DNA of 64,000 nucleotides from an uncultured Flavobacteriales bacterium (GCA_964619305.1 CAZUDW010000001.1:14356-78355); one strand, 5' to 3'. Positions 40,467 to 64,000 are shown, counted from the stretch's first letter. Numbers and translations: made by a program. Notes: generated by a model not told the origin, from the sequence alone.

Positions 40467-41057
40467 CTATCGGTATAATTTTTCTTTCTGTATGTACCCA
40501 AGAACGGATTTGGGCAAATCATTGCCAGTATCTTTTTCGTTTCTTAGCTTATCACGTATTTCTGTGGAAGAAACTGTATAAAACGGTGCATCCAACAGTA
40601 CAATATTTGAAGTCTGAATAAACGGAATGTCTGCGTGTGTTAACCTGCTTTCCTGAGCCCTAGGATAAACATAAATAATATAAGAACTAATAATTTTCTG
40701 ATAAGATTTCCACATGTCTAAATATTTAAAACTGTCAAGTCCCATCAAAAGAGCAAAAGATTTGTCTTCATATTGTCCAGACAATGATTCCAATGTATCA
40801 ATTGTGTAAGATGGCTGTGGTAAATGAAGTTCAACATCAGAAACCTTTAATAAAGGATGTTCCTTAACTGCCAACTCAAGCATTTTTATCCTGAAAGAAA
40901 CATCAATCAAATTCTTGTTGTTTTTTTTAAAAGGGTTTAACGGTGAAACAACAAACCACAATTCTTCAATTTCCGGCAGAGATGCTATATAATTGGCAAT
41001 GGCAATATGCCCGTTATGAACAGGATTAAACGATCCAAAATATAATACAGTAATCAA
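40467..41057 (-). CDS. nadD: Nicotinate-nucleotide adenylyltransferase
   Basis: 196 aa. GSFNPVHNGH (the (H/T)xGH nucleotidyltransferase motif). Confidence 0.9.
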   Translation of the reverse strand: MITVLYFGSFNPVHNGHIAIANYIASLPEIEELWFVVSPLNPFKKNNKNLIDVSFRIKMLELAVKEHPLLKVSDVELHLPQPSYTIDTLESLSGQYEDKSFALLMGLDSFKYLDMWKSYQKIISSYIIYVYPRAQESRLTHADIPFIQTSNIVLLDAPFYTVSSTEIRDKLRNEKDTGNDLPKSVLGYIQKEKLYR

Positions 41058-41623
41058 GATTTCAGGAATTGTCGCACCAGTTGTTCTGCATCAGCCTGAG
41101 CATGAATAATATCTTCATTGATCACAACTGCATCAAACATTGATGCTTGTTTTATTTCCTCCGCTGCTTTCTGAAGCCGCTGTTCAAGATTAGCTGAATC
41201 GCCCCTTTTTAACAATCTTGCTTTCAATTCATCTATAGAAGGTGGCATAACAAAAAGAGCTAATGAATTATCAGAGAATATTTTTTTTAAGTTTCCGGCA
41301 CCTTTTACATCTACATCAAAAATCACCGTCTTATCCTTTTTCCAAATGCGGGCTATTTCTGTTCTTAATGTGCCATAATAATGACCCTGATAAACTTCTT
41401 CCCACTCTATAAAAGCATCTTCCCCTATTTTTCTTTTGAACTCCTCAGTTGACAAAAAATAATAATCTTTCTCATGGATCTCAGTATTCCTTCTCTCCCT
41501 TGAACAAGCAGAGACAGAGAACTCCAACTCCGGTATCATTTTAAGCAAATGATGCACTATAGTTGTTTTCCCTGAACCTGATGGTGCAGACACAATAACA
41601 CACTTCCCTTCAACATTGTTCAT
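41054..41623 (-). CDS. gmk: Guanylate kinase
   Basis: 189 aa. P-loop SAPSGSGKTT and the GMP-binding ExxY/RxxR pattern. Overlaps the nadD start by 4 nt. Confidence 0.9.
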   Translation of the reverse strand: MNNVEGKCVIVSAPSGSGKTTIVHHLLKMIPELEFSVSACSRERRNTEIHEKDYYFLSTEEFKRKIGEDAFIEWEEVYQGHYYGTLRTEIARIWKKDKTVIFDVDVKGAGNLKKIFSDNSLALFVMPPSIDELKARLLKRGDSANLEQRLQKAAEEIKQASMFDAVVINEDIIHAQADAEQLVRQFLKS

Positions 41624-42486
41624 AGCACATTGAGCACTTGCTCTTTTATTTGTTCCAATGCATCTTTCATCAGAATCACCAACTTCTGAATTTCTGCATT
41701 ATTAGCTTTTGAGCCGATTGTATTAATCTCTCTACCCATTTCCTGAATAATAAACCCTAATTTTTTCCCTTTCGGTTCTGTATCTCCTATGGTTTCTTTG
41801 AAATAATCACAATGACTGGTAAGCCTTACCATTTCCTCATTTATATCAAGTTTTTCAAGGTAATAAATCAGTTCCTGCTCAAACCTGTCAATATCCGGAC
41901 TGATATTGTATTCCTGCATCCTGTTAAGCAGACGTTTTCGCACATTAATTGCCCTTTTTGGTTCAATTTTTTTAATTTTATCAAGATTGTGTTCTATAAT
42001 ATCAATGTGCTGCATTATGTCCTTTTCAAGCATTTTTCCTTCTTTTGCCCTGAACTTAATGAGATGATCAATTGCAGCAAGCATAGCTTTTTCTGTCAAA
42101 TTCCAATCGCTATTTTCTACAGATATCTTTTCATTTGAAATTACATCTGGCATTTTTAGAATCAATGATAAAATATCTGAAGATTGTGTATTAATATCCT
42201 GCTGCAAAGAATTCAATTCATCATAATATTTTTTTGCTAGTTCCCTGTTAATAATTTGATTTTTCCTGCTATTACCCCATTCTATGTTGAAATCAATATC
42301 CACTTTACCTCTTAATAGTTTCTTTCCTGCAACAGAACGCAGACAATCCTCTTTTTCCTTCAGGACAGAAGGCAAGTGTAGATTCAGATCAAGTTGTTTG
42401 CTATTTACAGAACGGGCTTCAACATTTAGAACAGCAAATGATAGATCTGATTCAGACTTCCCATACCCCGTCATAGATAAAATCAT
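41620..42486 (-). CDS. yicC: YicC/YloC family endoribonuclease
   Basis: 288 aa. MILSMTGYGKSE N-terminus typical of YicC_N, plus a C-terminal DUF1732-like region. Overlaps gmk by 4 nt. Confidence 0.85.
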   Translation of the reverse strand: MILSMTGYGKSESDLSFAVLNVEARSVNSKQLDLNLHLPSVLKEKEDCLRSVAGKKLLRGKVDIDFNIEWGNSRKNQIINRELAKKYYDELNSLQQDINTQSSDILSLILKMPDVISNEKISVENSDWNLTEKAMLAAIDHLIKFRAKEGKMLEKDIMQHIDIIEHNLDKIKKIEPKRAINVRKRLLNRMQEYNISPDIDRFEQELIYYLEKLDINEEMVRLTSHCDYFKETIGDTEPKGKKLGFIIQEMGREINTIGSKANNAEIQKLVILMKDALEQIKEQVLNVL

Positions 42487-47670: not shown

Positions 47671-50214
47671 TTGAGGATTTATCATAATCTTTGCGCAAGG
47701 TCAGTGAATAAAAGAGTGATATTTAAACAAACACATCCATTTACTCTGAATAATATATGCTGGATTATTTGTATCCTTAGTGCCATCCTTATGCCAAAAA
47801 CAGTTGTGTCACAAAAAACCGTTATCACCGGGAAGGTATATGATAAAGAAACCGGAGAGCCTCTGTCATTTGTTAATGTCGTATTTAAAAACAGTAAAAT
47901 CGGATCAAGTACAGACTTAAACGGCAAATACCGTATTGAGACTTACTATGTTACAGATTCATTGATATGCTCATTTGTCGGGTACAAAAAACTTAGTAAG
48001 AAAGTGAGAAAAGATGTTACCCAGGTCATAGATTTTCCAATGGAACAAAGCAGCATAGAATTGCATGAATTTGTTGTAAAGGCCGATAAAAAAGAAGAGA
48101 ACCCGGCACACAAAATATTGAGAAGGGTAATTGCAAATAAAAAAGTGAATAATCGGGAAAAACTAAATGCATATCAATATGAAACTTACAATAAAATTGA
48201 ATTTGATTTAAATAATATTACAGAAGAATATAGAAATAAAAGAGTTTTCAAACCTTTTCAGTTTGTTTTCGATTATATTGATACAACAGAATCAAAAGAC
48301 TTTCTTCCATTATTTATGGTTGAGAATATTTCAGACTATTATTTCAGAAAAAACCCAAAATCACAAAAAGAGGTTATTAAAGCTACAAAAGTGTCAGGTG
48401 TGACAAACGAAAGCATCTCACAGTTTTTAGGTGACATGTATCAGAACATGAATATTTATAATAATTACGTGACTTTTTTTCATAAAAGTTTTATCAGTCC
48501 AATTGCTGATTTTGGTTTGTTCTCATACAGGTATTATTTGTTAGACAGTGCTTACCTTGGCAAAAATTGGTGCTATAAAATCCGATTTCTCCCCAAACGT
48601 AAACATGAGTTGACCTTTATGGGAGATATGTGGATCAATGATACCACTTATGCAATCAAACAAATCGAAACAACTATATCAGAAGATGCTAACATTAATT
48701 TCATAAATGAATTTTCCGTAGAACAACAGTATGAACAAGTTGAAAAAGAAGTATGGATGCTTACCAAAGAGAAATTGGTTGTAGATTTTACACTTACCGA
48801 TAATACTATAGGATTATATGGAAGGAAAACCACCTATTACAGGAATTTTATTATAAATGAACCAAAAGAAGATGAATTTTATTTTGGTGCCGAGAATATC
48901 ATAGTTAAAGATGGTGCAAATGATATGGATGATGCATACTGGGATTCTACAAGATATGAAGATCTTACAAAACAGGAGAAGGATATTTATGCAATGGTAG
49001 ATACAATTAAACAAGTACCGGCTTTCCGTACCTACTATGATCTTATTTTTATGTTTACAACAGGATATAAGGAATGGGGAAATTTTGAATTAGGACCATA
49101 TTTTACTGCATATAGTTTCAACCCGATAGAAGGAAACCGCTTTAGAATCGGAGGACGTACCAGCAATAAATTCAGTACACGGATTATGCCCGAATTATAT
49201 CTTGCTTACGGAACAAGAGATAATAAATTTAAGTATGGAGGTAATTTTATTTATATGCTATCAAAGAAACCAAGAATGACACTTGGTGCTTCTTATAAAA
49301 ACGACATAGAGCAACTTGGTCAAAGTTCCAATGCCTGGAGGCATGACAATATCATTGCATCTATTTTCAGAAGATCCCCAAATTATGAGCTCAACGGATT
49401 TGAGGAGTATAGTGGTTATTATGAGAAAGAGTGGTTTCAGGGGTTATCAAATATATTCACTTTTAAGCATCGTACTATTTGGCCGGTAGGAGACACCTTA
49501 GAATTTGTACATCAATCATCTGATGGCAGTTTAACAGAGATCAATGATATTACAACTACAGAACTCAGTTTGTACATGCGTTTTGCTTATAAAGAAAAAT
49601 ATGTTTTTTACGAATTTGAACGCTCCAGCCTAGGCACCAAATACCCGATAATTCAATTACAATATACACTTGGATTAAAAGACGTCTTTCAGAGTGATTA
49701 TGATTATCATCGTTTATTATTGAACATTAGCGATAAACTTCAATTGAGTCCATTAGGGTATAGCGAATTCTCTATTGAGGCGGGTAAGGTTTGGGGAAAC
49801 CTTCCATTCCCTTTACTGACTTTACATAATGGAAATGAAACATATTATTATGATCAAATGGCTTTCAATCTTATGAATTATTATGAATTTATCAGTGATG
49901 AATATGTCAGTTTCTCTTTAACACATAGATTCAATGGTTTATTTTTAAATAAAATTCCCTTATTACGCAAATTAAAGTGGAGAGAAGTGGTGAGCGGTAA
50001 AGCAGTGTATGGTCATCTGAATGAAAAGAGCCGGGATATCCTGGTCTTTCCAAAAGGTCTTACTGGTTTATCTAAACCATATATAGAAGCAGGGGTAGGG
50101 ATTGAAAATATTTTGAAGATTTTCAGGATAGATGCACTATGGAGATTAAGTTATCTTGACAATCCAAGGATAACCAAGTTCGGAATACGTACTATGTTTG
50201 TATTTCAATTCTGA
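47671..50214 (+). CDS. Carboxypeptidase-regulatory-like domain + DUF5686-type outer-membrane protein
   Basis: 847 aa (TTG start per the ORF track; in-frame GTG at 47716 is an alternative). Signal peptide, N-terminal CarboxypepD_reg-like motif ([19 protein letters not shown]), and a large C-terminal beta-rich domain ending in an aromatic residue. Confidence 0.65.
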
Positions 50215-50975: not shown

Positions 50976-51161
50976 TTGCCCTGATAGATTATTATACTAA
51001 CAGATCATTAAACTACTTCAATCTCAACAACATCCATCTGGAAGATTGTTTTATTCAATTCAAGTTTTCAACAGGAACTAAAATTTTGTTGAAAAATAAG
51101 AAAAACTACTAACACTGGAAACCGTAGAAATACCGTATTTTCATTGCCAATTTACTAAGAT

Positions 51162-51407
51162 ATGGGTTCAACTGAGTTTTCAAATTATTACAATAAACCA
51201 TGTCGATTTAAATTAAAATCGGGCAAAGAGGTGTTTGGTGTTATTTGGGAAGATATTGTAAATGGGAATAAAGAGTATTTCTTTGCCAGTTCAAGCGAAT
51301 ATCAGGCATTTATTAAATCAGGAAACCTTCTGAATCCCACACCAAAACTTCGACCTATTAAGATGGATATTAGTGAGGTTTTAGCTGCCAAACGTATTGA
51401 AATATAA
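51162..51407 (+). CDS. Small hypothetical protein (81 aa)
   Basis: Standalone ORF in an otherwise empty 440-nt gap. No recognisable motif; it may be spurious. Confidence 0.25.
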   Translation: MGSTEFSNYYNKPCRFKLKSGKEVFGVIWEDIVNGNKEYFFASSSEYQAFIKSGNLLNPTPKLRPIKMDISEVLAAKRIEI

Positions 51408-51420
51408 TATATCTGATCTA

Positions 51421-51822
51421 TTATTCGCAATCCTGGCACAGTTCGAATAGCACGCCATTAGTAGACTTAGGATGAATAAAACAAACTAATTTATTGTCGG
51501 CCCCTTTCCTCGGCTCAGTACTTATAAATTGGAATCCTGAATCAGATAATCTCTGAATTTCAGAAAATATATCTTCTACTTTAATAGCTATATGATGGAG
51601 CCCCTCTCCATTTTTCTCAATAAATTTATGAATAGCACTTTGTTCGTTAATTGCTTGAAGTAATTCTATTTTACAGGAACCTGACTGGAAAAATGCAGTC
51701 AAAACACCTTCTGAAGAAATTTCCTCGGTTTTATATAATGGCATTGATAATAAAGCCTCGTAAATTACGCAGGAGTGCTCAATATCTCTTACTGCAATCC
51801 CAATATGTTCAACATTGCTCAT
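51421..51822 (-). CDS. VOC-family enzyme, likely methylmalonyl-CoA epimerase
   Basis: 133 aa. HIGIAVRDIE N-terminal glyoxalase-fold metal motif and a C-terminal HHIA…FEL pattern. Confidence 0.75.
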   Translation of the reverse strand: MSNVEHIGIAVRDIEHSCVIYEALLSMPLYKTEEISSEGVLTAFFQSGSCKIELLQAINEQSAIHKFIEKNGEGLHHIAIKVEDIFSEIQRLSDSGFQFISTEPRKGADNKLVCFIHPKSTNGVLFELCQDCE

Positions 51823-51843
51823 AAAGCAAAAGTAAAGACAAAA

Positions 51844-51867
51844 AAAATACTCCCTAAAGAGTATTTT
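51844..51867 (-). terminator. 9-bp perfect hairpin (aaaatactc-cctaaa-gagtatttt) with a downstream T-run on the minus strand
   Basis: Lies between the T9SS hypothetical stop (51891) and the VOC gene start (51822). On the minus strand a T-run follows the stem. Confidence 0.4.
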
Positions 51868-51890
51868 AAAATGAGGTCGATTTCTATTTA

Positions 51891-52679
51891 TTATTTTTTA
51901 ATAAACTTTTCAGTTTTATTATCATAGTTTAAATAATATACTCCCTTATTAAGGTTGGATACATCTACTTTATCTGCAAATCCTTTTTTCACAATATTCC
52001 CATAACTGTCATAAATTTCAAACATTGTTTCAGCCGTGAAGAAGATGTCTTTAGTCGCTTTTATTGGATTAAATGTAATTTCAGGTTGCATTGAACGATA
52101 TCTGGCAGACTGGGAATATCTTGGCTTTCCAGTATAATCAATCTGTTTCACTCTGAACTGATTTTCCCCAGAATGTGGAGTTATATTAAAATTGTAGCTG
52201 TTTTCACCAGCTTCACCTTTCCCTTCAATTTCGCCAACTTTAATCCATTTATTCCATCTGAATTGCTCAACAATATATGGAAGCTTACCTGTTTCTCCTT
52301 TAGTTTTCCATTCTAATGTTCCTTCTTTATTAACAGCGATACTAATTACTTCAAAAGTACTTTTTGGCTTAAGCACCTCCGGATTCAGCACTTTGGGACG
52401 ACAATCATCTTTATGCTTAATTATTACTTCCACTTTGGCTCCAATTTCTAATTGAAAAGGAGTGAAATCAATTTCAAAAGCACTTGAGTTAATCTCATCT
52501 GTAGTTACATCTCCATTGACTCTGACCTCAAAAGTACAGAAACCAACACCAGATCCGGCAAAAGGATTTTGAACATACAAATTCTTACCTTGATAATTGC
52601 CTTCTAAAATAATTGTACCAGCAAACGCTTTGGTAACAATAATAGCGGTGACAATAAATGTCCATAAAAGCCTGTTCAT
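51891..52679 (-). CDS. Secreted hypothetical protein with T9SS type-A C-terminal sorting domain
   Basis: 262 aa with a signal peptide. C-terminus …DVSNLNKGVYYLNYDNKTEKFIKK matches the Por secretion C-terminal domain pattern. Confidence 0.6.
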   Translation of the reverse strand: MNRLLWTFIVTAIIVTKAFAGTIILEGNYQGKNLYVQNPFAGSGVGFCTFEVRVNGDVTTDEINSSAFEIDFTPFQLEIGAKVEVIIKHKDDCRPKVLNPEVLKPKSTFEVISIAVNKEGTLEWKTKGETGKLPYIVEQFRWNKWIKVGEIEGKGEAGENSYNFNITPHSGENQFRVKQIDYTGKPRYSQSARYRSMQPEITFNPIKATKDIFFTAETMFEIYDSYGNIVKKGFADKVDVSNLNKGVYYLNYDNKTEKFIKK

Positions 52680-52804
52680 CTGATTATATTCAGTTTTTGG
52701 CGAAATTTTAATTCCGCAATATTAAAATCATTATTTCACATATCAAAATTATATGGATTTTTTTATCTTAAATAGTCAATACATTAAAGCTAAGATGTAA
52801 TAAT

Positions 52805-52812
52805 TATTTTTG
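52805..52812 (+). promoter_or_regulatory. Candidate -7 box (TATTTTTG) upstream of the SBP lipoprotein gene
   Basis: Exact TAnnTTTG match 64 nt upstream of the ATG. Confidence 0.2.
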
Positions 52813-52875
52813 TAATATTGCAAGATTAGAATTTATTAATTTTCTAAATTCAATAGAAAAAACAATATTTGTATC

Positions 52876-54642
52876 ATGAAGAGGCTCTCAACCATACTAA
52901 CATTTTTTGTTTTGGTGATCGTGTCATGCACACCTTCAAGTGAAGACATTTCCAATAATGATAAACCTGAATTAAAAGCAAAAGGCGGAAGAGCCTATGG
53001 CGGTACTTTTAAAATGAGTGAGACAGAAATTATTCACAATATTTATCCCCCTTCTATTACTGCCGCAAATGAGGCAAACGTAGCACAACAAGTTTTTGAA
53101 TGTCTTGTAAAATTTGATCCTCGAGATTTATCCGTTAAGGGCTGTCTTGCAGAAAGTTGGGATGTCGATGCAACTGGCACGAAATATACTTTTCATTTAA
53201 AAAAGGGAGTTAAGTTTCATGATGACCCTTGTTTTCCTGATGGTATTGGGAGAGAATTAACAGCTTCTGATGTAAAATATTCTTTTGAACGTATTTGCAC
53301 TCAAAGCAATGATAATTTAAGTTTTTCTTCAAGTTTTAAAGATCGTGTGTTAGGAGCAAATGAATATTATGAAGCAAGTGCAAACGGTAAACCAAATTTT
53401 GATTTAAGCGGTCTTAAAGTAATCGATGATTATACTGTTGAACTCTCACTGGTTAAGCCAAGGCCTTCTTTCCCATTTATTTTAGCACATCCTGCACTTT
53501 CTATTATTCCAGTGGAAGCAGTTAAAAAATATGGCAATAAATCAGTAGTTGGAACAGGCCCATTTATGCTAGCAAAAGGAACATCAATTAATGATAATCC
53601 GGTTATTCTGGTAAGTAATAAAAACTACCATGGGGCTGACACTCTTGGTAATCGTTTGCCTTTTCTTGATACAATCATGATCAGTATTATGGATTCAAAG
53701 AAATCGGAACTGGAAATGTTTTTACAAAAGAAATTACATGTTGTAAATGGTTTGCCTTCTGAATCTATACGTGAGATTGTCGAAGAACAAATAGCAAATT
53801 TTCAAAGCAACCCTCCGAAGTATATTTTGGCAAGAACGCCTGAAATGGCTACCAATTATTACACATTTAATTTACTGAAGGAACATTTTAAAGATATTCG
53901 TGTAAGGAAAGCAATAAACTATGCAATTGATAGAAACAGGATTATTGATCAAGTATTGAATGGTGAAGCATACGGGCCCGGGGAACAAGGAATTTGTCCA
54001 CCATCTTTTTCAGGATATGATATTATGAAAGTTAACGGATACTCTTATGATCCGGATAAAGCTAAGATTCTTTTAGCTGAAGCAGGTTATCCAAACGGAA
54101 AGAATTTTCCAACTATCAAACTGGAGCTCAATAGTGGTGGCTATAAGAATACAAGTGTTGCTTTTGAGGTACAAAAACAACTGATGGATAATTTGAATAT
54201 TAATGTTGATCTGGAAGTTGTACCATTCAGCCAAAAGCTGGAAGATGAAAGGTTGGGTAATGCAGATATCTTCAGAAGTGCATGGATTGCAGATTATCCG
54301 AGCCCGGAAACTTTTCTTTATTTGTTTTATGGGAAAAACGTTCCGGATTCTCCAGATGTTCCTTCTTATCCGAATACCTGCCGCTATGTTAATGAAGACT
54401 TTGATGCTTTGTATGACAGAGCAACTGCCTCCCAAAACCAAGAAGAGAGTTATGAATTATTCATCCAGGCAGAACAACTGATGCTTGACGAGGCACCTAT
54501 TATCGTGTTATGGTATAATGAGAATTATAAACTGATTCACGCAAACGTTAAAAATTATTATACCAATCCTATGAATTACAGAGATTTTTCTGAAGTTTAC
54601 TTTAAAAAACCGAAAGGCACCATTGCCCAACAAGGACAATAA
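52876..54642 (+). CDS. ABC-transporter family-5 substrate-binding lipoprotein (oligopeptide/dipeptide-binding type), orphan
   Basis: 588 aa. Lipoprotein signal (LVIVSC), SBP_bac_5-like bilobal pattern. No permease or ATPase genes adjacent. Confidence 0.75.
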   Translation: MKRLSTILTFFVLVIVSCTPSSEDISNNDKPELKAKGGRAYGGTFKMSETEIIHNIYPPSITAANEANVAQQVFECLVKFDPRDLSVKGCLAESWDVDATGTKYTFHLKKGVKFHDDPCFPDGIGRELTASDVKYSFERICTQSNDNLSFSSSFKDRVLGANEYYEASANGKPNFDLSGLKVIDDYTVELSLVKPRPSFPFILAHPALSIIPVEAVKKYGNKSVVGTGPFMLAKGTSINDNPVILVSNKNYHGADTLGNRLPFLDTIMISIMDSKKSELEMFLQKKLHVVNGLPSESIREIVEEQIANFQSNPPKYILARTPEMATNYYTFNLLKEHFKDIRVRKAINYAIDRNRIIDQVLNGEAYGPGEQGICPPSFSGYDIMKVNGYSYDPDKAKILLAEAGYPNGKNFPTIKLELNSGGYKNTSVAFEVQKQLMDNLNINVDLEVVPFSQKLEDERLGNADIFRSAWIADYPSPETFLYLFYGKNVPDSPDVPSYPNTCRYVNEDFDALYDRATASQNQEESYELFIQAEQLMLDEAPIIVLWYNENYKLIHANVKNYYTNPMNYRDFSEVYFKKPKGTIAQQGQ

Positions 54643-54755
54643 AAATTTGTTCATCTTCCGAAAATCTTATTTGGATTAATGATTTTTATGTTTCTACATT
54701 AACGCGATGATAAAGAAGATTTACTCTGTTATATAAAACGAAGTTCATATCTTAC

Positions 54756-56417
54756 ATGACCAAGTATATGAGATTAAATTATTTGACATTTATTATTATT
54801 GGGCATTTAATCTCATCAATAGCTGTTGCCCAAACATTCACCTCATCGAATTTGCCAATAGTTGTCATAAACACAAATAATGTACCTATTCCTGATGAAC
54901 CCAAAATCTCTGCTGATATGGGCATTATATACAATGGCCCCGGCAACAGGAATTATTTAACCGATCCTTTTAATGAATATAACGGGAAGATCGCTATTGA
55001 GAAAAGAGGATCTTCCTCGCAAATGTTTCCTAAAAAACAGTATGGGCTGGAAACACGGGACACACTTGGTATAAAAGTGAATGTATCAATATTCGGATGG
55101 CCTTCAGAACATGACTGGATATTATATGCTCCATATAGCGATAAAGCACTAATCAGAAATGTACTAGCATATAAACTGGGATGGGAAACGGGCCATTATG
55201 CACCTAGAACTAAATTATGTGAGTTGGTTCTCAACAATGAATATATGGGTGTTTATGTCTTTATGGAAAAAATTAAAATAGATGCCGGAAGGGTTGACAT
55301 CGCAAAACTTACTCACATTGATACTTCAGGATATGAACTCACAGGTGGATATTTATTAAAAATCGATAAACTGACCGGGGGAGGCAGTGGTTGGTATTCA
55401 CCTTTTGATCCTATTCCTGCAGCAAACAATCAAAAAATATATATTCAGTATCATGACCCTGATCCTGATTCATTATTGCCAGTTCAAAAATCCTATATTC
55501 GTGACTATATAACACAATATGAATCGGTTTTAAGCAGTCCAAATTATAATGATCAAACCACCGGATATCCGGCCTACATTAATATCTATTCATTTATAGA
55601 TTATTTAATTGTTAATGAAGTAAGTAAAAATGTAGATGGTTATCGCTTAAGTACCTTTTTTTATAAAGATAAATATACAAAGGATCCAAGAATTTACGTT
55701 GGCCCATTGTGGGATTTTAACCTTGCATTCGGAAATGCTAATTATTGCGGTGGAGGAAATGCCAACGATGGTTGGGCTTTGGACTTTAACACAGTTTGCA
55801 GTAATGATGGATGGCAGATACCTTTTTGGTGGGATCGTTTATTGCAGGATACAACGTTTCAGAACAAGCTAAAATGTAGATGGGAGGAACTTAGAGAAGG
55901 TCCGTTATATACAGATACTTTGTTGAATTGGATAGATAGCACCACCGTTTATTTAGATGAATCTCAGCAAAGGAATTTCATACGTTGGCCTATTTTAAGC
56001 ACTTATGTTTGGCCGAATAATTTTGTGGGCGGAAGCTATCAAGCTGAAATTGACTATATGAAAACCTGGATCAGTGATCGATTGAACTGGCTTGATGCCA
56101 ATATTCCCGGAACCTGTTATCCATGGACTTCCTCGAATGACAATGATTTACTTCTTTCACATATTTTGATTTATCCCAATCCCATCAGCGAAGAAAGTGT
56201 ATTGTTTTTTAATCTTGAACATACAGCCAAGCTAAACTTGAATGTTTATAATGTTTTCGGTCAAATGGTAAAAAGAATCAATGTTGGTCAATGTATTGAA
56301 GGCTCAAATTTTATTTCACTCAGAGAAATTTTCACCAGCATTGTTGCCGGAACTTATATTATACAATTAGAGTTAGCAGGTAAAAAGCCTCTGGTAATCC
56401 GAATCGTAAAGTTATAA
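54756..56417 (+). CDS. CotH kinase family protein with T9SS type-A C-terminal sorting domain
   Basis: 553 aa with a signal peptide. CotH-type motifs (IEKRGSSSQMFPKKQYGLE, YVFMEKIK). C-terminal ~80 aa (…LIYPNPISEESVLFFNL…GTYIIQLELAGKKPLVIRIVKL) matches the T9SS CTD. Confidence 0.7.
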   Translation: MTKYMRLNYLTFIIIGHLISSIAVAQTFTSSNLPIVVINTNNVPIPDEPKISADMGIIYNGPGNRNYLTDPFNEYNGKIAIEKRGSSSQMFPKKQYGLETRDTLGIKVNVSIFGWPSEHDWILYAPYSDKALIRNVLAYKLGWETGHYAPRTKLCELVLNNEYMGVYVFMEKIKIDAGRVDIAKLTHIDTSGYELTGGYLLKIDKLTGGGSGWYSPFDPIPAANNQKIYIQYHDPDPDSLLPVQKSYIRDYITQYESVLSSPNYNDQTTGYPAYINIYSFIDYLIVNEVSKNVDGYRLSTFFYKDKYTKDPRIYVGPLWDFNLAFGNANYCGGGNANDGWALDFNTVCSNDGWQIPFWWDRLLQDTTFQNKLKCRWEELREGPLYTDTLLNWIDSTTVYLDESQQRNFIRWPILSTYVWPNNFVGGSYQAEIDYMKTWISDRLNWLDANIPGTCYPWTSSNDNDLLLSHILIYPNPISEESVLFFNLEHTAKLNLNVYNVFGQMVKRINVGQCIEGSNFISLREIFTSIVAGTYIIQLELAGKKPLVIRIVKL

Positions 56418-56975
56418 TTATTGGATTTTATTCTCTGTAACTTCAGTTGCCTTCTTAGGTTGTAAAAATTTTGCAGCAGTCAGCATTCGTGAGGCAGCTT
56501 TTTCCGGCATTACTTCACCTGTTTCAATATCATGCAACTCATAATTGATATCATTTATTTTCACTATTGCGTAAAAGTGATAAAATGTTTTAGAACCGTC
56601 AGGTAATTGAGCATAATACAATATTGATGTTGAGTCTTCCTGCACAATTGCACATTTAAACAATAAATCTTCTTTCAAATCCGCTTTTTTTAGTTCAAGG
56701 TCACCACCTTCTAAAATAGCTATCTGGTAATAGTCTCCAACTTTTACCTCAGTTTCATTGGCATTATTGATACTTACTTGTGGTAACCCAACTGAAGAAT
56801 CAGGAACATATAACATTACATCCAATCCCCATTCACTTAAATCTAAAGGGTTATAAGTCTTTATTTCCTGGGGAATAATCAACTTGCTATTTCCATCCTC
56901 TGAATCATCATTTCCATTGTTACATGATAAAATAAACAGAGTAGGAAAGAAGAAAAGTGTTAAAAATTTTTTCAT
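56418..56975 (-). CDS. Hypothetical lipoprotein downstream of the A2M gene
   Basis: 185 aa. Lipobox FILSCNNG. No recognisable domain. Confidence 0.55.
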   Translation of the reverse strand: MKKFLTLFFFPTLFILSCNNGNDDSEDGNSKLIIPQEIKTYNPLDLSEWGLDVMLYVPDSSVGLPQVSINNANETEVKVGDYYQIAILEGGDLELKKADLKEDLLFKCAIVQEDSTSILYYAQLPDGSKTFYHFYAIVKINDINYELHDIETGEVMPEKAASRMLTAAKFLQPKKATEVTENKIQ

Positions 56976-57114
56976 TTCAAAATATTTTCACTGTTCACTG
57001 ATACACAACAAAGATATAACATCAATTTACATCAGCAAAACCACATTTTCCCCGACCTGTTCAGATGATACAATTCCCACTTCAAAAACAATTGAAGTTG
57101 ATAAATAAAGGACT

Positions 57115-60100
57115 CTATTCGCTTACTATTACTCTAATACCTTCCGAATGAGAAGTGAATTCTGGAGCATACATACACTGAATCGTGCTGATCCCGTTAG
57201 AAAAGTCCCCTTTATGCGTAACACGCAGTGAATATTCAAACACATAAGTTCCTTTAGGTAAATATTCTATGAAAAAATTTGTTGATGCATCTTTGGAGCT
57301 TTCATAATAGCCTAAACCATCCTGATATTTATATCTTGATAAAATATTCTCAGGTTCAAATCCTGCAGCTCTCATATCTTTCAAATGTACATATTCCATA
57401 TGCCGATCAGAGCGCAGAACAATCCGTACGGTTATTTTATCCCCTAGATGAAGTTTAGTATTAGTATTTATAGGTTTCAGCACTTTCCCTCCTTCAGTTA
57501 TCTTTTCTAAAAAAAGTTTCTTCTCAAGTTGTAATGGCGTTTTATGAGATGTGATTTTATCCAACTGTTCAAAATATTGCCAGTAAATCGCTCCCCATGC
57601 TATTCCTTTTCCCGGTTTTGTCACAACCACATTACCCATTTCAGGTTTGATTTCTGATTTACTCCAGGATGTTTTGAAATAACCCGTTCCGTTTTCCACT
57701 TTAATGTCATCCATTTTTTTAGGATCAATTTGCAAATTGCCTATTTTTATTTGAACAAGATTTTCCGTTTCAAGCCATTCAGTACCTGATATTAACAAAG
57801 CGTAACATGCATCGGCTGTAGCTCTGGTTGTCTTCCAATCCTGTGTCTGCTTTTGTTTTAAGAGCCAGATACGCATTTCTTCTACCGATTTCTTATCATC
57901 AGCAATCTCATTAAATGCTTCGATAAGTAAAGAATGCATCTCAATAGGAGCTTGATACCAATAATACCCCGGTACATTTTCTTTCCAGTACATGCCCATT
58001 TCTTCATTGAAAATAGCATTCTCTCTCAAAGAGTTGATAATATTGGTGGGTGTTGTTTTATCTCCAAACCTGTAGATGCCCAATGCAAGCATACCCTGCA
58101 TATAACGGCTGTTTTCAAGCCAATATTTTTTTGCCTGTTCCATGTAATAGTTAAACGCCTCTTTGTTTCTGCCATTTACTGATATATCTGTAAAGAAACT
58201 TCTTGCATATAAATACTGAATTTGCGTATATCCAAGATTATTGTCATTAAGATTCACCTTATTTCTTATCAGCCATTGATAATCTTCTCTTATCCTGTTA
58301 TCTAGATAAGGTATTGCCTTGCTAACCATATTCCATATACGATGACTCTCCCTTATTTCCTTTACCCCAAGTTGATCAAGGTGCCCAAAACCGGCAACGA
58401 TGTGTTGGGTAATATAACGACTTTCCGGCATACCTGGGAACCAGGGCCAGCCCCCATTTGAAACCTGTGCTTTTTCCAGTTTAAGCAATGCAGAACCCAA
58501 CTCATTACTCATCCTATTCAAATCAAACAGCAACCCTATCCTTTTTTTTCTCTCTGTCTCATTTTTTGCATCTAAAACCCAAGGTGTTTCCTCTAACATA
58601 AGTGATTTTAATTCCTGATTCTTCTCGAGATTAGAAAGTAAGGCTTCCGGGTTTTGTATTTTCCATGAATCAAAAACGTATTTGACTTTAGGATGAGAAT
58701 TGGCGATATGTGATGCAATACTGTTAGCATAAAAGCGTGAAAAAGTCTGTTCAGAACACTCATAAGGATATTCCATCAAATATGGCAATGCCTGAATTGC
58801 ATACCATGCCGGATTTGATGTGAATTCAAGTGTTAGTTTATGATTTTTTAAGGAAGAAGACTTCCCTGAACTCAGCAGCTTTCTGAATGTAAATGTTTTA
58901 GTCTCATTACCCCTGATTGGCATTGGCATAGACTCAGTTACAAGCATACGATTTGTTAATACAGGTATAGCAGATTCTTCACCATCGCTGAACTTACCCG
59001 ATTTAGCAACCACCTTATACACAACTGCCCCTATTCCTTCAGGTATTCTGATATTCCATTGAACTAAAGCACTTTGACCTTTTTTTGCAGTAAAAACCTG
59101 ATCTGATTTTTTTTCACTCATAAAGGATTTATCTATTGGCTTCATTGTAAACGCATCAAAAAAACTTAGCCTAGCATTGCCTTTCATCTCCTTTTCAGTC
59201 AGATTTGATATTTTGGCAGTGAAAGTCATTTGGTCATTTTCCCTGAAAAAGCGCGGAACATTGGGTGTGATCATCAGGTCTTTTTGAGTAACAGTTTCCT
59301 CATATAACATGGCTGATTTAAGATCTTTTGTATGTGCTAGCCCCATAAATTTCCAACGGGTTAGTGCTTCAGGAATAGTGAACTTTATCGTCACATTGCC
59401 ATCCTCATCTGTTGTAAGGTGGGGATAGAAAAATGCTGTTTCATTAAAATTACTCCTGGCTTTGATTATTCCGAGTTGATCTCTATTACCTGTTTGCCCC
59501 CCGCTATCCCTTTCGTCTTTAGTTTTATCTGCACCAGTTATTGTCTGAGTTTGCCGATTCGTATCCTTCTCCCCGGATTTATCCATTTTCTTCAGTTCTA
59601 TATTACCTCTACCTCTTGCTTCAGAAGCTGGCTTATTCACACTGCTTTCTCCTAATAATCCAACTTCTTCATCCTCATCTAATATCGCCCCCCCCTTTGC
59701 AGACTTTTTTGCATAACGATAGAGCCGATCACCATATCCATAAAAATCATATCCAAACCAATTGAGATAATCGTAATATCTCCCGGAACCACTGTAATAA
59801 TTATTCCAGCCTTCCGAATAAAGTGCAGATTGCCTGACGCCAAAAGCATTTCTTGATTGCCAGTAAAGCGATGAATAGAACGATTGAAAAACATTAAAAT
59901 TCCACATATTCGGTATAATTGCGTCAAGTGATGCATCATAAAGGGCAGCAAGCATTTCAGATGCTACTTTTTCACCTTTCGGACCTTTTATCTTTACTTT
60001 CCATTCTTCATCCTGGCCGGGATAGAGTTTATTGCGGAAAGTTTCAAACTCTATATCCAGCTTTTTATTGCTGTAAGGAACGATGATGATCTGTCCAAAA

Positions 60101-63100
60101 GTATATGGTCTGTTATTCTTAACCACCGCAAGATGGATTGCAAAATTTCCCCTGTACTCTTCCTTCACGGGGATGCTGATACGCCTCTGCTCCTCATTCA
60201 GATTGATCCATCGCCTCTGTATGATTTTGTTTTTCAGTTCAATCTCATATAATATATATACATCTTTATCTGCCGACCCAATCATAAACTCTACATTCTC
60301 TTCTGGTTCAGCTTCTTTTTTCAAAGGAACAAACCAAACAGCATCTCCAACAGGCATTTCCTTTTTTAATGAAGAATAAATCCTGATATATCTAATCATT
60401 TTAACCTCTTCTCCGTATTTATCTTTACAAGTTGCTTCCATTTTATAATAGCCAGGTTTCCATTCTGGCAATTTATGGAGGACAAGATCATCACTTTTTT
60501 TGGTATCAAAGGGCTTATCATACACTTTCAAGTCAGGTTTCCAGGTGCTGACATTATTTTCATTATCATATACATCATTTGGGAACTTAGCACTATGTTC
60601 AGCTTTAGTCATGCTGAATTTGTCCGGTCTTTCCCAGTCCCTTTTCCTGTATACTTGTTTGGGTGCTTCCAGATGATAAAAGATCAGTCTTCCGGATGCA
60701 GGCTCTTCCACACCCATTAAGTTGAATGTTTTTAACTTGAATGAATCCTGTCCGTTTTGTTCTATCTGATCAGGTACATTAACACTTATGTTTAAAGCAT
60801 TATAACCCACTACAACTACTTGTTGAGCACTATGAGTCTCCCCGTTAATGTCTGTAACATCTGCTGTTATGGTGTAAGTGTACTGAGGCTTATAACGTCT
60901 ATTAATACTTTTATCTGGAACGGCTTTAAAAGATATATTAAATGCTCCTTTCTCATTTGTAGTGATTACTCCATGTGCAATTTCCATCTGGGGAGAAGTA
61001 GGATACCAACCTCTCCAGTAGCCCCAGAAAGGAAATGATGCATTCCTTACAACATGATATCGAACTTTTGCTCCATCTACAACAGCACCTGCATATGCTA
61101 TTGCATTTCCCTCAACTTTCACGCTATCATCAAGCTTAAAGCTTCCGACTACCGGATTAAATTTAATTTCAAACTTTGGCCTTTTATATTCTTCTACCCT
61201 GAAATAAACGCTTCCATAGTTATTGGTTATATGCATTTGACCGTTAAGAGAAGATGTTGGGGCAGTAAAAGTACCGCTGAAGGTGCCATACTCATTTGTA
61301 GTAAGCTGGAGTTCTCCTACCTTTTGGTAGTTCACATCATACATTACCACCGTTGACTTATAATTCGTTTTAATACTGTGTTTCTCTCCATCTGTTTCTA
61401 TCACAATTCCCTTAAAATATATTATTTGACCAGGTCTGTAAATAGCTCGATCTGTAAAGAAATGCGTATTAATCCTTACTCTATCATAGGGTGAGTAACT
61501 ATATTGATAATAGGTGTCTTCTGTGTTGAGTTCATCATCTTCCTTTGTGAATTCTATATAAAAGTTGCGATAGTTCTTGGTAGCAGGAATTTTGAAATAC
61601 CCATCCTGGTTAGTGATGTACGTTCCGTATTTTTTCCAATCATACGCCCTAAGAGCATAGTTGTATTTTTCATAATACAATTTAGCCGTAACTCCTTCCA
61701 TGGGTTCTCCAGTTGTCCTGTTCAATGTTCTGACCTCATAAGTTCCATCATTCATATTCCTGATAAAATAACTTATGTCAGAGCTCCAGAATGATTTATA
61801 TGCAACTGCATTCCCCTTGTAACTAAATTCAGAATCGCTTCCTGCTAGCAGCACATAAAACCCTTTATCGGTTGCAGGATTTGCAAGCTCTATCTTATGT
61901 TGCTGAAAATCCCCTTCATTCTCAAGTTCTCCTTCCCATTCCTTCACAACTTTCAGGCTCCTTAGATATTCTATCCATTCATCATCATATTTTTTCAACC
62001 TGTTTTTTCTGAATGTTTCAAAATCAGCTTTGGCAATACGGTAATAGACTTTACCTATGTTGCGGTAGCTCAACAATGTAAGGAAAGGTTTGCCTGGCAC
62101 CTGCACATTTCCAAGATCGAATTTCATATCTTTGGTCTTTATCCTATCCACCAGGTATTTGCAGTTATCACTTCCATGTGAATCAGGGTATTCTTTGATT
62201 GCTTGTTTGCATATCTCGAGTGCCTTCTTCCTGTCCCACTTATGCTCTTCATTAAACGGTGGGTTGTATTTGTTGGCATTTTCATCATAGGCAGTAGCCA
62301 GATAATAAGCTGCATCTGCAGAGCCCGGATAATCTTTGTATTTTTCCATCAGGTGTTTAAGAGCATCCATATATAAACTGTCTTTTAGTTCTGATATCGA
62401 TTTGCTACTGGCAAACCCCAGACGTTTGATTTCGACATCTATCAGTGCTGCCGGATCCACATCATTGAGATGAAAAGCAGTGAGTTGTTGCAGTATCTCC
62501 GCAGCGTGATAAGACATGGACAAGCTATCTTTGCTGGAAAGTACTATTGATTCGAATTCATCTGCATCTCCGAAAAACCTGTTGTCTGCCACTTCATAAC
62601 GATTAGTAGGTTGATCCACCTCCGGCTCTGTGTTCATAAAAAAATCCACTGCACGATGTGCAAGAAAATCGTATAATGTAGGCCTGAAATTTCTGCTGTC
62701 TTCATATTTGATCAACACCTCATCAAAAGTACTGATGGGTGTATGCTGTAAACTGTCTGTACTTTGCAGTGAGAGATTGTAGTTTTTTACAACCATACTC
62801 AGCAGACTTTTCAGATCCCAGGTCCTGATGTCTTCTCTTTTAAAATTCACAGTCTGCGTACGGTCATAGAATTTCCAGCGGTTGTTCTCGAAATAACGCC
62901 AGTATATTTCAGCAGTGATAGAATATAGCACCTGCTTCACCGGGAACCGAGCATGATCCGCTTCCTGTTGTAATTCATATATGGAGTTAACATAATTATC
63001 TTCTTCCAAATAGGAATTGAGTTTGATACGATAAATTAGTGCCTTGACAATTTGTGCATTATTTCCATTAGTTTTTGATTTCTCCAGTATCCCGTTCACT

Positions 63101-63294
63101 ACCTCCAGGGCAGATTTTGTCAACCCCTTATTAAGCAAAGAATCCACTTTGATCCATTCTTTTTTATAAGTGCTCCCTTTGGGAAATATAAGCAGCGGTT
63201 TTTGGGGGTTGAAAGGATGGAGATTGATAGCAAAACCCGCTGAAAGAAGCAGAATGCACACAACTATGATTTGCAGAAAGTGTCTTTTTTTCAT
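57115..63294 (-). CDS. Alpha-2-macroglobulin family protein (giant, ~2060 aa) with variant thioester-site motif
   Basis: The ORF extends to 63357. The start is placed at MKKRHFLQIIVVCILLL (signal peptide). Multiple MG-like beta-sandwich segments; a thioester-domain start ALPYLMEYPYECSEQTFSR (CxEQ); and a C-terminal receptor-binding-like domain. Confidence 0.8.
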   Translation of the reverse strand: MKKRHFLQIIVVCILLLSAGFAINLHPFNPQKPLLIFPKGSTYKKEWIKVDSLLNKGLTKSALEVVNGILEKSKTNGNNAQIVKALIYRIKLNSYLEEDNYVNSIYELQQEADHARFPVKQVLYSITAEIYWRYFENNRWKFYDRTQTVNFKREDIRTWDLKSLLSMVVKNYNLSLQSTDSLQHTPISTFDEVLIKYEDSRNFRPTLYDFLAHRAVDFFMNTEPEVDQPTNRYEVADNRFFGDADEFESIVLSSKDSLSMSYHAAEILQQLTAFHLNDVDPAALIDVEIKRLGFASSKSISELKDSLYMDALKHLMEKYKDYPGSADAAYYLATAYDENANKYNPPFNEEHKWDRKKALEICKQAIKEYPDSHGSDNCKYLVDRIKTKDMKFDLGNVQVPGKPFLTLLSYRNIGKVYYRIAKADFETFRKNRLKKYDDEWIEYLRSLKVVKEWEGELENEGDFQQHKIELANPATDKGFYVLLAGSDSEFSYKGNAVAYKSFWSSDISYFIRNMNDGTYEVRTLNRTTGEPMEGVTAKLYYEKYNYALRAYDWKKYGTYITNQDGYFKIPATKNYRNFYIEFTKEDDELNTEDTYYQYSYSPYDRVRINTHFFTDRAIYRPGQIIYFKGIVIETDGEKHSIKTNYKSTVVMYDVNYQKVGELQLTTNEYGTFSGTFTAPTSSLNGQMHITNNYGSVYFRVEEYKRPKFEIKFNPVVGSFKLDDSVKVEGNAIAYAGAVVDGAKVRYHVVRNASFPFWGYWRGWYPTSPQMEIAHGVITTNEKGAFNISFKAVPDKSINRRYKPQYTYTITADVTDINGETHSAQQVVVVGYNALNISVNVPDQIEQNGQDSFKLKTFNLMGVEEPASGRLIFYHLEAPKQVYRKRDWERPDKFSMTKAEHSAKFPNDVYDNENNVSTWKPDLKVYDKPFDTKKSDDLVLHKLPEWKPGYYKMEATCKDKYGEEVKMIRYIRIYSSLKKEMPVGDAVWFVPLKKEAEPEENVEFMIGSADKDVYILYEIELKNKIIQRRWINLNEEQRRISIPVKEEYRGNFAIHLAVVKNNRPYTFGQIIIVPYSNKKLDIEFETFRNKLYPGQDEEWKVKIKGPKGEKVASEMLAALYDASLDAIIPNMWNFNVFQSFYSSLYWQSRNAFGVRQSALYSEGWNNYYSGSGRYYDYLNWFGYDFYGYGDRLYRYAKKSAKGGAILDEDEEVGLLGESSVNKPASEARGRGNIELKKMDKSGEKDTNRQTQTITGADKTKDERDSGGQTGNRDQLGIIKARSNFNETAFFYPHLTTDEDGNVTIKFTIPEALTRWKFMGLAHTKDLKSAMLYEETVTQKDLMITPNVPRFFRENDQMTFTAKISNLTEKEMKGNARLSFFDAFTMKPIDKSFMSEKKSDQVFTAKKGQSALVQWNIRIPEGIGAVVYKVVAKSGKFSDGEESAIPVLTNRMLVTESMPMPIRGNETKTFTFRKLLSSGKSSSLKNHKLTLEFTSNPAWYAIQALPYLMEYPYECSEQTFSRFYANSIASHIANSHPKVKYVFDSWKIQNPEALLSNLEKNQELKSLMLEETPWVLDAKNETERKKRIGLLFDLNRMSNELGSALLKLEKAQVSNGGWPWFPGMPESRYITQHIVAGFGHLDQLGVKEIRESHRIWNMVSKAIPYLDNRIREDYQWLIRNKVNLNDNNLGYTQIQYLYARSFFTDISVNGRNKEAFNYYMEQAKKYWLENSRYMQGMLALGIYRFGDKTTPTNIINSLRENAIFNEEMGMYWKENVPGYYWYQAPIEMHSLLIEAFNEIADDKKSVEEMRIWLLKQKQTQDWKTTRATADACYALLISGTEWLETENLVQIKIGNLQIDPKKMDDIKVENGTGYFKTSWSKSEIKPEMGNVVVTKPGKGIAWGAIYWQYFEQLDKITSHKTPLQLEKKLFLEKITEGGKVLKPINTNTKLHLGDKITVRIVLRSDRHMEYVHLKDMRAAGFEPENILSRYKYQDGLGYYESSKDASTNFFIEYLPKGTYVFEYSLRVTHKGDFSNGISTIQCMYAPEFTSHSEGIRVIVSE

Positions 63295-63564
63295 ATTGAG
63301 ATAAATTTGATTGAATGATGCAAGCTGATACAGTATTCCATAAAACAAAATAATCAACAGGCATACAAATACTTATGCAAAGATGAAGCATCACGAAAAA
63401 AGTTGCAAATCCAAATTGTGTTCATGATATACAATGGATGGAATTAGTATATTCTCGGAAACCTTAGTGCCTCTATTATAAAACGGATATTTCCATAAAA
63501 TCAGTTCCTGAATCAAGGTAATAATAAACTTCTTTTATAATTGTAATATTTTTTTTGGTATGTA

Positions 63565-63750
63565 CTCTATTCGCTTACAGCTACTCTAATACCTTCCGAA
63601 TAAGATGTGAATTCTGGAACATAACATCTCTGAATCGTGATGATCCCGTTTGAGAAGTTGCTTTTATGCGTCATAGGTAGCGAATTTTCAATAAAGAAAT
63701 TTGATGAAGCATCTTTGGTGCTTTCATAATAACCTAAACCATCCTGATAA
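63565..63750 (-). pseudogene. Decayed duplicate of the last ~60 codons of the A2M gene (gene fragment)
   Basis: ~85% nucleotide identity to 57113-57330, same orientation. Keeps the frame and the same TAG stop, with an in-frame 30-nt deletion (orig …IEYLPKGTYVFEYSLRVTHKGDFSNG… vs copy …IENSLPMTHKSNFSNG…). Upstream in-frame stops and no start codon. Confidence 0.6.
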
Positions 63751-63931
63751 GATGTATCACAGGTTTTTGCGAGCGAAGTAGCATGTGAAGAAATAAAAGA
63801 TTACTTATTGAAAGTTTAAGCTATTTGCTGTTGTTTTCTTATATTATCTCTCCAACAGGTGAATCTACGGCTTAAGCAAGGATAAATACCTCTATTTTAG
63901 CAAATAAGATTTCTGCTTGTTCCGCCAACCG

Positions 63932-64000
63932 GCCTGGCTCTCGTAATCAACAAAGAATATCTTCAAATCTGCCTGGCTTTCATAATCGACAAAAAAGACT
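63932..64000. repeat. Imperfect direct repeat (2 copies, ~39-bp period) truncated by window end
   Basis: gcctggctctcgtaatcaacaaagaatat vs gcctggctttcataatcgacaaaaaagact, about 80-85% identity. Confidence 0.3.

Follow-up and report, generated by a model that had tools for sequence, protein, structure and literature searches.

We examined five consecutive genes, encoding proteins predicted to be secreted or lipid-anchored, at positions 51891-63357 of a 64,000-nucleotide stretch of DNA from an uncultured Flavobacteriales bacterium (GCA_964619305.1, CAZUDW010000001.1:14356-78355; this whole 64-kb stretch is termed the window), and conclude, with a probability of about three in four, that the interval is not one system but three unrelated pieces, made up of ordinary envelope genes that have become neighbors by chance. 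An earlier interpretation made from the sequence alone (the sequence-only reading) had seen in these genes, which code for a small type IX secretion system (T9SS) cargo protein, a family-5 solute-binding protein (SBP), a CotH-family protein, a 185-residue lipoprotein and a giant alpha-2-macroglobulin (A2M), a module for surface protection or interaction. If such a module were real, the combination of an exported atypical kinase, a transporter-less SBP and a protease trap would constitute a new surface defense system; if the genes are neighbors by accident, there is no such system to infer from the locus. Taken singly, the genes are unremarkable: each belongs to a known family or to one that is widespread but unnamed. 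By its best matches, the interval falls among Flavobacteriales-like lineages close to Vicingaceae.

The three pieces are best understood as follows. The first appears to be an old and widely kept gene order, SBP gene, divergent gene for the 262-residue T9SS protein and epimerase gene, which in relatives is further flanked by typA/bipA and, at the opposite end, by a HAD hydrolase gene. The second is a member of a very large and often tandemly duplicated cargo family, namely a T9SS-tailed CotH protein encoded where relatives have typA/bipA. The third consists of an A2M with a thioester and, downstream of it, a small lipoprotein of the Mog1/PsbP fold, a pairing that is seen in the closest relatives only. 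On this account, the five products would act independently; the activities, substrates and export routes that we propose for them below are read from family membership, motifs, predicted folds and gene neighborhoods. The features concerned are listed here, with a slash marking the cleavage site of signal sequences:

51421-51822, minus strand: methylmalonyl-CoA epimerase of the glyoxalase fold, 133 residues (TIGR03081, Glyoxalase_4)
51891-52679, minus strand: 262-residue secreted protein with a signal peptide, two beta-sandwich (immunoglobulin/fibronectin type III-like) domains and a type-A T9SS C-terminal domain (CTD) at residues ~205-262
52680-52875: AT-rich intergenic region between the divergent genes for the 262-residue protein and the SBP, with no Rfam family
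52876-54642, plus strand: family-5 (peptide/nickel type) SBP, a lipoprotein of 588 residues with the lipobox IVS/C
54756-56417, plus strand: CotH kinase-family protein, 553 residues, with the signal peptide AVA/Q, a CotH domain at residues 81-446 and a type-A CTD at residues 472-552
56418-56975, minus strand: 185-residue lipoprotein with the lipobox ILS/C, an acidic linker and a Mog1/PsbP-like alpha-beta sandwich
57115-63294, minus strand: A2M family protein, 2059 residues from ATG 63294 (the mechanical open reading frame extends to TTG 63357), with the signal AGFA/I

Gene neighborhoods of the interval

The sequence-only reading was accurate about the individual genes. A mechanical list of open reading frames (ORFs) returns all five with the boundaries it had drawn, and profile searches against Pfam and NCBIfam, by which every window ORF of at least 150 residues was annotated, uphold its CotH, SBP_bac_5, T9SS CTD and A2M assignments, including the fusion of the CotH domain to a T9SS sorting domain and the presence of an A2M thioester motif. 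Its view that all five products are exported or lipid-anchored is likewise borne out by three signal-peptidase-I signals and two lipoboxes, which were read by eye from the translations. It had further described the genes as free of housekeeping functions, which is true of the five themselves but not of the adjoining gene at 51421-51822, the methylmalonyl-CoA epimerase gene, which is the tightest neighbor of all and had been left out of its interval.

The proposed module, in contrast, did not survive the comparison of gene neighborhoods across genomes that had been put forward as its check, in which the genes of the block are not found together elsewhere. With the CotH gene as the anchor, we took the best 80 loci of a pattern-based scan (one genome per species; relatives 35-61% identical) and searched 10 kb on either side with all window proteins by tblastn; homologs of the SBP, the A2M, the 185-residue lipoprotein and the 262-residue protein are present at none of them. 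Clustering of all flanking ORFs at these 80 loci recovers only tandem CotH paralogs and clade-specific housekeeping genes as recurrent neighbors. Among the best 80 metagenome loci of a second pattern-based scan, anchored on the A2M gene (relatives 39-58% identical), the SBP and the 262-residue protein genes occur near the anchor at one (L083), and a homolog of the 185-residue lipoprotein at three (L081, L083 and L131). Here too, flank clustering returns no constant partner, only housekeeping synteny restricted to one clade (e.g., AspRS, SucD and MlaEF), and the CotH gene found 8 kb from the A2M gene at L137 is unrelated. Finally, neither a CotH nor an A2M gene lies near the gene for the 262-residue protein in any of eight further genomes, which were chosen as distinct homologs on long contigs (L161, L162, L166, L167, L168, L171, L172 and L173).

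The single A2M locus with several of the genes, L083, has the order DUF5686, OsmC, A2M, cupin, RsmB, hypothetical, MR/MLE (enolase superfamily), 185-residue lipoprotein homolog, TypA/BipA, SBP and 262-residue protein. The CotH gene is missing, typA/bipA occupies its position in the window, and housekeeping genes are interspersed among the rest; this is a pattern of decaying chromosomal synteny and not of a functional cluster. A further set of genes places the region in the chromosomal backbone: yicC-gmk-nadD lies ~10 kb from the gene for the 262-residue protein in the window (40467-42486, minus strand) and ~4 kb from it in the marine Vicingaceae locus L168 (4139-6294).

A five-gene surface module, in which the exported CotH protein would modify surface or foreign proteins, the SBP would sense or capture a ligand, and the A2M with the small lipoprotein would guard against proteases, is consistent with the predicted location of all five products outside the cytoplasm and with the contiguity of their genes, which are separated by short gaps. 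Some observations do weigh against chance juxtaposition. The window is collinear with three metagenome contigs of its own species, at nucleotide identities of 99.2-99.9%, so that the arrangement is stable within the species and lineage-specific co-regulation may exist. The SBP and CotH genes lie on the same strand with a gap of 113 bp and no terminator called between them, and they may be co-transcribed in this organism. The best-80 neighborhood samples are, moreover, not phylogenetically balanced, and the CotH relatives in them (35-61% identity, none closer than ~60%) may include paralogs in place of orthologs. Set against these points are the lack of co-localization at 80 CotH loci, 79 of the 80 A2M loci and the eight further genomes, and the presence at L083 of an rRNA methyltransferase gene, an enolase-superfamily gene and typA/bipA in between, with no CotH gene. 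We therefore regard such a module as highly improbable. The functional links among the genes that the sequence-only reading had left unproven reduce, as far as recurrence goes, to two partial ones, SBP with 262-residue protein and A2M with 185-residue lipoprotein, of which the former is widespread and the latter is seen in the nearest relatives only.

One same-species contig (L165), with an 81-residue gene call after the SBP gene, was considered as a CotH-less strain and rejected, as it is collinear with the window and ends inside the CotH gene.

The solute-binding lipoprotein, the 262-residue protein and the epimerase

The contexts of the gene for the 262-residue protein indicate that the conserved unit is 51421-54642, which extends beyond the interval of the sequence-only reading. 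The epimerase gene is directly downstream on the same strand in all eight evaluable genomes, and an orthologous SBP_bac_5 lipoprotein gene lies divergently upstream in seven of nine (the eight and L083). In L168 and L171, a ferrochelatase or aminoacyl-tRNA synthetase gene takes the SBP position, with the 262-residue protein and epimerase genes retained. On the far side of the SBP gene, typA/bipA follows immediately at two loci, L083 and L173, and after a few more genes in L167, and a HAD hydrolase gene often comes after the epimerase gene. The epimerase itself is a secure assignment (TIGR03081, 136.5 bits against a cut-off of 114.95; Glyoxalase_4, E 1.5e-21).

The SBP matches SBP_bac_5 (E 6.6e-80), with the fold extending over its whole length, and scores far below all NCBIfam equivalog cut-offs (e.g., OppA, 158 bits against 947). 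Its closest solved relatives are peptide binders, namely Borrelia OppAIV (4gl8, E 3.9e-51), DppA and OppA. In keeping with the earlier claim that it has no transporter partners, the window ORFs of at least 150 residues include neither a peptide permease nor an Opp/Dpp ATPase, LptB being the only ATP-binding cassette (ABC) ATPase among them, and the SBP is hence an orphan, at least locally. The flanks of seven SBP orthologs are similarly devoid of permease genes, and all eight orthologs inspected (48-56% identical to the window protein) carry lipoboxes. It shares the SBP_bac_5 fold with OppA, DppA and MppA, the cluster-C peptide binders of ABC importers, and lipoprotein anchoring with the Borrelia OppA proteins, but differs from OppA and DppA importers in having no cognate permease or ATPase in the window or beside its orthologs. 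Judging from its family, its ligand would be peptide-like and would not be passed on to an ABC importer, and the retention of such a transporter-less lipoprotein in several lineages is of interest in itself.

The 262-residue protein begins with a signal-peptidase-I type signal peptide (MNRLLWTFIVTAIIVTKAFA followed by G, with cleavage at KAFA/G, as read by eye), and a hydrophobic N-terminus is found in every aligned homolog. Its CTD scores just above both relevant cut-offs (Por_Secre_tail, 29.9 bits against 27; TIGR04183, 24.8 bits against 23), no Pfam or NCBIfam model covers residues 21-204, and its AlphaFold2 model (predicted local distance difference test, pLDDT, 90) has three beta-sandwich domains including the CTD fold. 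We accordingly predict a T9SS substrate that would be built solely of binding-type beta-sandwich domains. We recovered 3603 homologs, the best 120 of which are all 65-79% identical and ~262 residues long, and an alignment of 46 sequences has 70 invariant columns, two cysteines among them, with the CTD as conserved as the remainder of the protein. Across the context genomes, the protein is 64-70% identical to that of the window, as against 49-59% for the epimerase and, in L168, 49% for Gmk, 44% for YicC and 40% for NadD. The presumed accessory cargo thus counts among the region's slowest-evolving proteins, and a T9SS protein that has no family model and is better conserved than central housekeeping proteins is a point worth pursuing. 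This degree of conservation suggests contact with a conserved partner.

One candidate for such a partner is the adjacent SBP: the two proteins might form a functional surface pair in which, for example, the beta-sandwich protein docks or presents the ligand-loaded SBP, which would explain the missing permease. The genes remain adjacent and divergent in seven of the nine genomes despite sequence identities of 48-56% and 64-70%, every SBP ortholog is a lipoprotein without nearby transporter genes, and the conservation of the 262-residue protein, far above that of neighboring housekeeping proteins, is what a fixed partner would lead one to expect. However, the cytoplasmic epimerase is a more constant neighbor (8/8), typA and the HAD hydrolase gene recur as well, and L168 and L171 keep the 262-residue protein and epimerase genes with the SBP gene replaced. 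Since the epimerase and housekeeping genes share the same order, the adjacency is no stronger than the plain synteny of unrelated genes and by itself does not prove a functional link; we consider a pair of this kind unlikely, if still the more credible of the functional associations discussed here. A second option is that the 262-residue protein, small and cargo-like, belongs to the core of the envelope in a large Flavobacteriales-like clade without having been recognized as such, and that it is no dispensable accessory cargo but stays tied either to the secretion or surface machinery or to the orphan SBP. Its slow evolution, conserved CTD and fixed chromosomal position would all be explained in this way, and we treat the proposal as a speculative one with rather low odds. 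Under chance juxtaposition, which we favor for the interval as a whole, the SBP and the 262-residue protein are simply parts of one long-kept stretch of chromosome.

In overall build, the 262-residue protein resembles PorA (PGN_0123) of Porphyromonas gingivalis, which at 246 residues is of comparable length and likewise has a signal peptide, a beta-sandwich and a type-A CTD. PorA, although cargo-like, serves in regulation and not as an enzyme, and its homologs are confined to Porphyromonas (PMC7712824). The window protein differs in having two sandwich domains and in lacking detectable sequence similarity; with no sequence match, and with PorA not among the fold matches listed, we rejected a relationship and retain the comparison as an analogy only.

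Between the 262-residue protein and epimerase genes lies a hairpin with eight consecutive T after it (~51843-51872, minus strand; AAAATACTC-TTTAGG-GAGTATTTTTTTT), which resembles an intrinsic terminator. It is AT-rich with two G-C pairs only, and a consensus scan hence did not call it; its position after the gene for the 262-residue protein implies that this gene may be monocistronic. On the other side of the epimerase gene, between it and lptB, there is an 81-residue ORF (51162-51407, plus strand) without a Pfam match, which is called as a gene in three independent same-species metagenome assemblies (L163-L165).

The CotH-family protein

The CotH protein matches PF08757 over the full profile (positions 1-322 of 322; E 8.4e-56; 190.2 bits against a cut-off of 23.8). 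Its CTD is recognized by TIGR04183 (31.0 bits, cut-off 23) and falls under the cut-off of Pfam Por_Secre_tail PF18962 (24.2 against 27); the homolog profile matches the solved CTDs 8glk_D and 8glj_D at E 0.005. No solved structure is close to it by phmmer, and the homolog profile reaches Bacillus cereus CotH (5jd9) weakly (E 1.3e-4). Two aspartates, invariant among 18 homologs, are predicted to be the catalytic and metal-binding residues (codons checked):

55635-55637, plus strand: D294
55713-55715, plus strand: D320

Their counterparts in the profile alignment with 5jd9 are D224 and D247, between which there is the same 23-residue spacing as between D228 and D251 of Bacillus subtilis CotH; the alignment of this segment is weak by itself, and the mapping rests on the N-x-D-G and W-D motifs. 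D228 and D251 are essential in the B. subtilis protein, which is inactivated by their mutation (PMC7821199). As both aspartates are kept, the catalytic machinery of the window protein appears to be intact.

The Bacillus CotH proteins (PF08757; 5jd9/5jda) are therefore comparable in the full-length Pfam match and in the counterparts of both essential aspartates. Their site of action is the interior of the mother cell, where CotB and CotG of the spore coat are the targets (PMC7821199); the window protein, by contrast, carries both a signal peptide and a T9SS sorting domain, and its phylum does not sporulate. Given the signal peptide, the type-A CTD and the T9SS genes in the window, it is fair to infer that the protein is exported by the T9SS, and, going by its family, it could transfer phosphate either prior to export or once at the cell surface. 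The fusion is common in the databases and has already been named by NCBI: at E<=1e-10 we found at least 7978 homologs, the majority of which carry the T9SS tail PF18962. In the library that we searched, no literature takes CotH and the T9SS jointly as its topic. With the CotH-T9SS combination very common in Bacteroidota and the aspartates kept, the phosphorylation targets of the exported CotH proteins are a testable question.

The genes for T9SS-type CotH proteins often occur as tandem paralogs (loci L001-L080), and some of the paralogs display an extra N-terminal proprotein-convertase P-domain, PF01483 (e.g., L027, 11602-13701). Together, the tandem paralogs and the P-domain variants point to an expanding and diversifying cargo family.

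The A2M protein, the 185-residue lipoprotein and the rest of the window

We take ATG 63294 and not TTG 63357 as the most likely start of the A2M protein, since its relatives align from residues 1-10 of the ATG version. Four domains score above their Pfam cut-offs, in the order MG2 (residues 631-712), A2M_BRD (1010-1122), A2M (1307-1395) and bMG10 (1956-2066; all numbered from TTG 63357); ~600 N-terminal residues are without a Pfam match, no NCBIfam model matches the protein, and phmmer finds no solved A2M structure at E<=1e-5. The thioester motif C-S-E-Q is at residues 1513-1516 (58747-58758, codons checked), and of the 80 segments aligned from related loci, 70 have CxEQ. By analogy with its family, the protein would be exported by Sec to the periplasm and trap attacking proteases, with cleavage of the bait region exposing the C-S-E-Q thioester and leading to covalent cross-linking of the protease.

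The same MG2, bait, A2M and bMG10 order is seen in Escherichia coli YfhM (ECAM) and Salmonella Sa-A2M, which also share with the window protein a Sec signal and hence a predicted envelope location. The window protein has the CxEQ motif of the YfhM type and not the thioester-less form of the MagD/YfaS type; it differs from the enterobacterial A2Ms in being ~400 residues longer and in having variable gene neighbors, with no pbpC or mag-like operon. In E. coli, YfhM is anchored as a lipoprotein and its gene is adjacent to pbpC. Neither the window A2M nor most of its relatives have a canonical lipobox, featuring signal-peptidase-I signals instead, and sequence inspection recognized no penicillin-binding-protein (PbpC) gene among the largest recurrent neighbor clusters of the 80 loci. 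The lipobox and pbpC are hallmarks of the enterobacterial operon and not of the A2M protein family.

We also uncovered a relic of the 3′ end of an A2M gene upstream of the intact one, on the same strand and ~270 bp from its start:

63564-63749, minus strand: A2M 3′-end relic of 61 codons and a stop, with a 30-nt deletion and with stop codons upstream

Against residues 1989-2059 (the last 71 codons) of the A2M protein, it shows 66% amino-acid identity (tblastn E 5e-24). The relic and the intact 3′ end (57112-57327) form direct repeats that bracket the A2M gene, in two segments of 82% (D1) and 88% (D2) nucleotide identity. Probably a tandem copy has been lost here, or the gene was replaced by recombination, and the relic fits the view that this part of the region was rearranged.

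The A2M gene is followed, on the same strand and after 139 bp, by the 185-residue lipoprotein gene, whose stop codon abuts that of the CotH gene. The lipoprotein has no Pfam or NCBIfam model, and its family comprises 184 clusters at E<=0.001 among 1.84 billion representatives. Its Mog1/PsbP-like fold recalls DcrB, LpqN and the type VI secretion system (T6SS) immunity proteins TplEi and Tsi3, at 5-12% sequence identity; it differs from these in lacking a family model, a shared motif or a nearby effector gene. The lipoprotein could conceivably be an A2M accessory, a membrane tether or regulator with a role like that of PbpC or the mag-operon partners of proteobacterial A2Ms. The closeness of the two genes agrees with this, as do the homologs 0.2-3.9 kb downstream of the A2M gene in L081, L131 and L083, which are among the closest relatives, and the use of the fold by envelope lipoproteins and by enzyme-binding T6SS immunity proteins. 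Against it, the association is found at only three of the 80 A2M loci, close A2M relatives (L102, L148 and L151) have other genes downstream, and four unrelated genes separate the A2M gene from the homolog in L083. A search for hidden homologs downstream of other A2Ms with a hidden Markov model built from four sequences added none among the neighboring ORFs, and the ORFs of similar size are unrelated cytoplasmic proteins. We accordingly hold an accessory role to be doubtful, and favor instead the placement of the A2M and lipoprotein genes as one of three unconnected pieces of the interval.

A protein with DUF5686 and CarboxypepD_reg domains is encoded near the A2M region both in the window (47671-50214, plus strand) and at L083 (1288-5886). 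The mechanical ORF at L083 additionally contains, N-terminal to this protein, a prolyl oligopeptidase (S9), through either a true fusion or a read-through of two genes.

The remaining window ORFs, over the same range of at least 150 residues, are chromosomal housekeeping and T9SS-related genes, the latter including:

26823-27863: PorP/SprF, a T9SS component
37228-40272: SprB-repeat protein with a CHU_C tail, T9SS-related

Promoter-like matches at 51000-64000 (63, against 49.6 +/- 8.1 expected from shuffles) are not in excess, and the count of the terminator scan is likewise not above the shuffled expectation. A search of the intergenic regions with Rfam found no riboswitch or other RNA family, and the only Rfam families in the whole window are two tRNAs. 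Elsewhere in the window, a single 821-residue ORF (31672-34137, minus strand) contains a complete alanine racemase alongside Mur ligase domains and resembles a MurF-like ligase fused to Alr.

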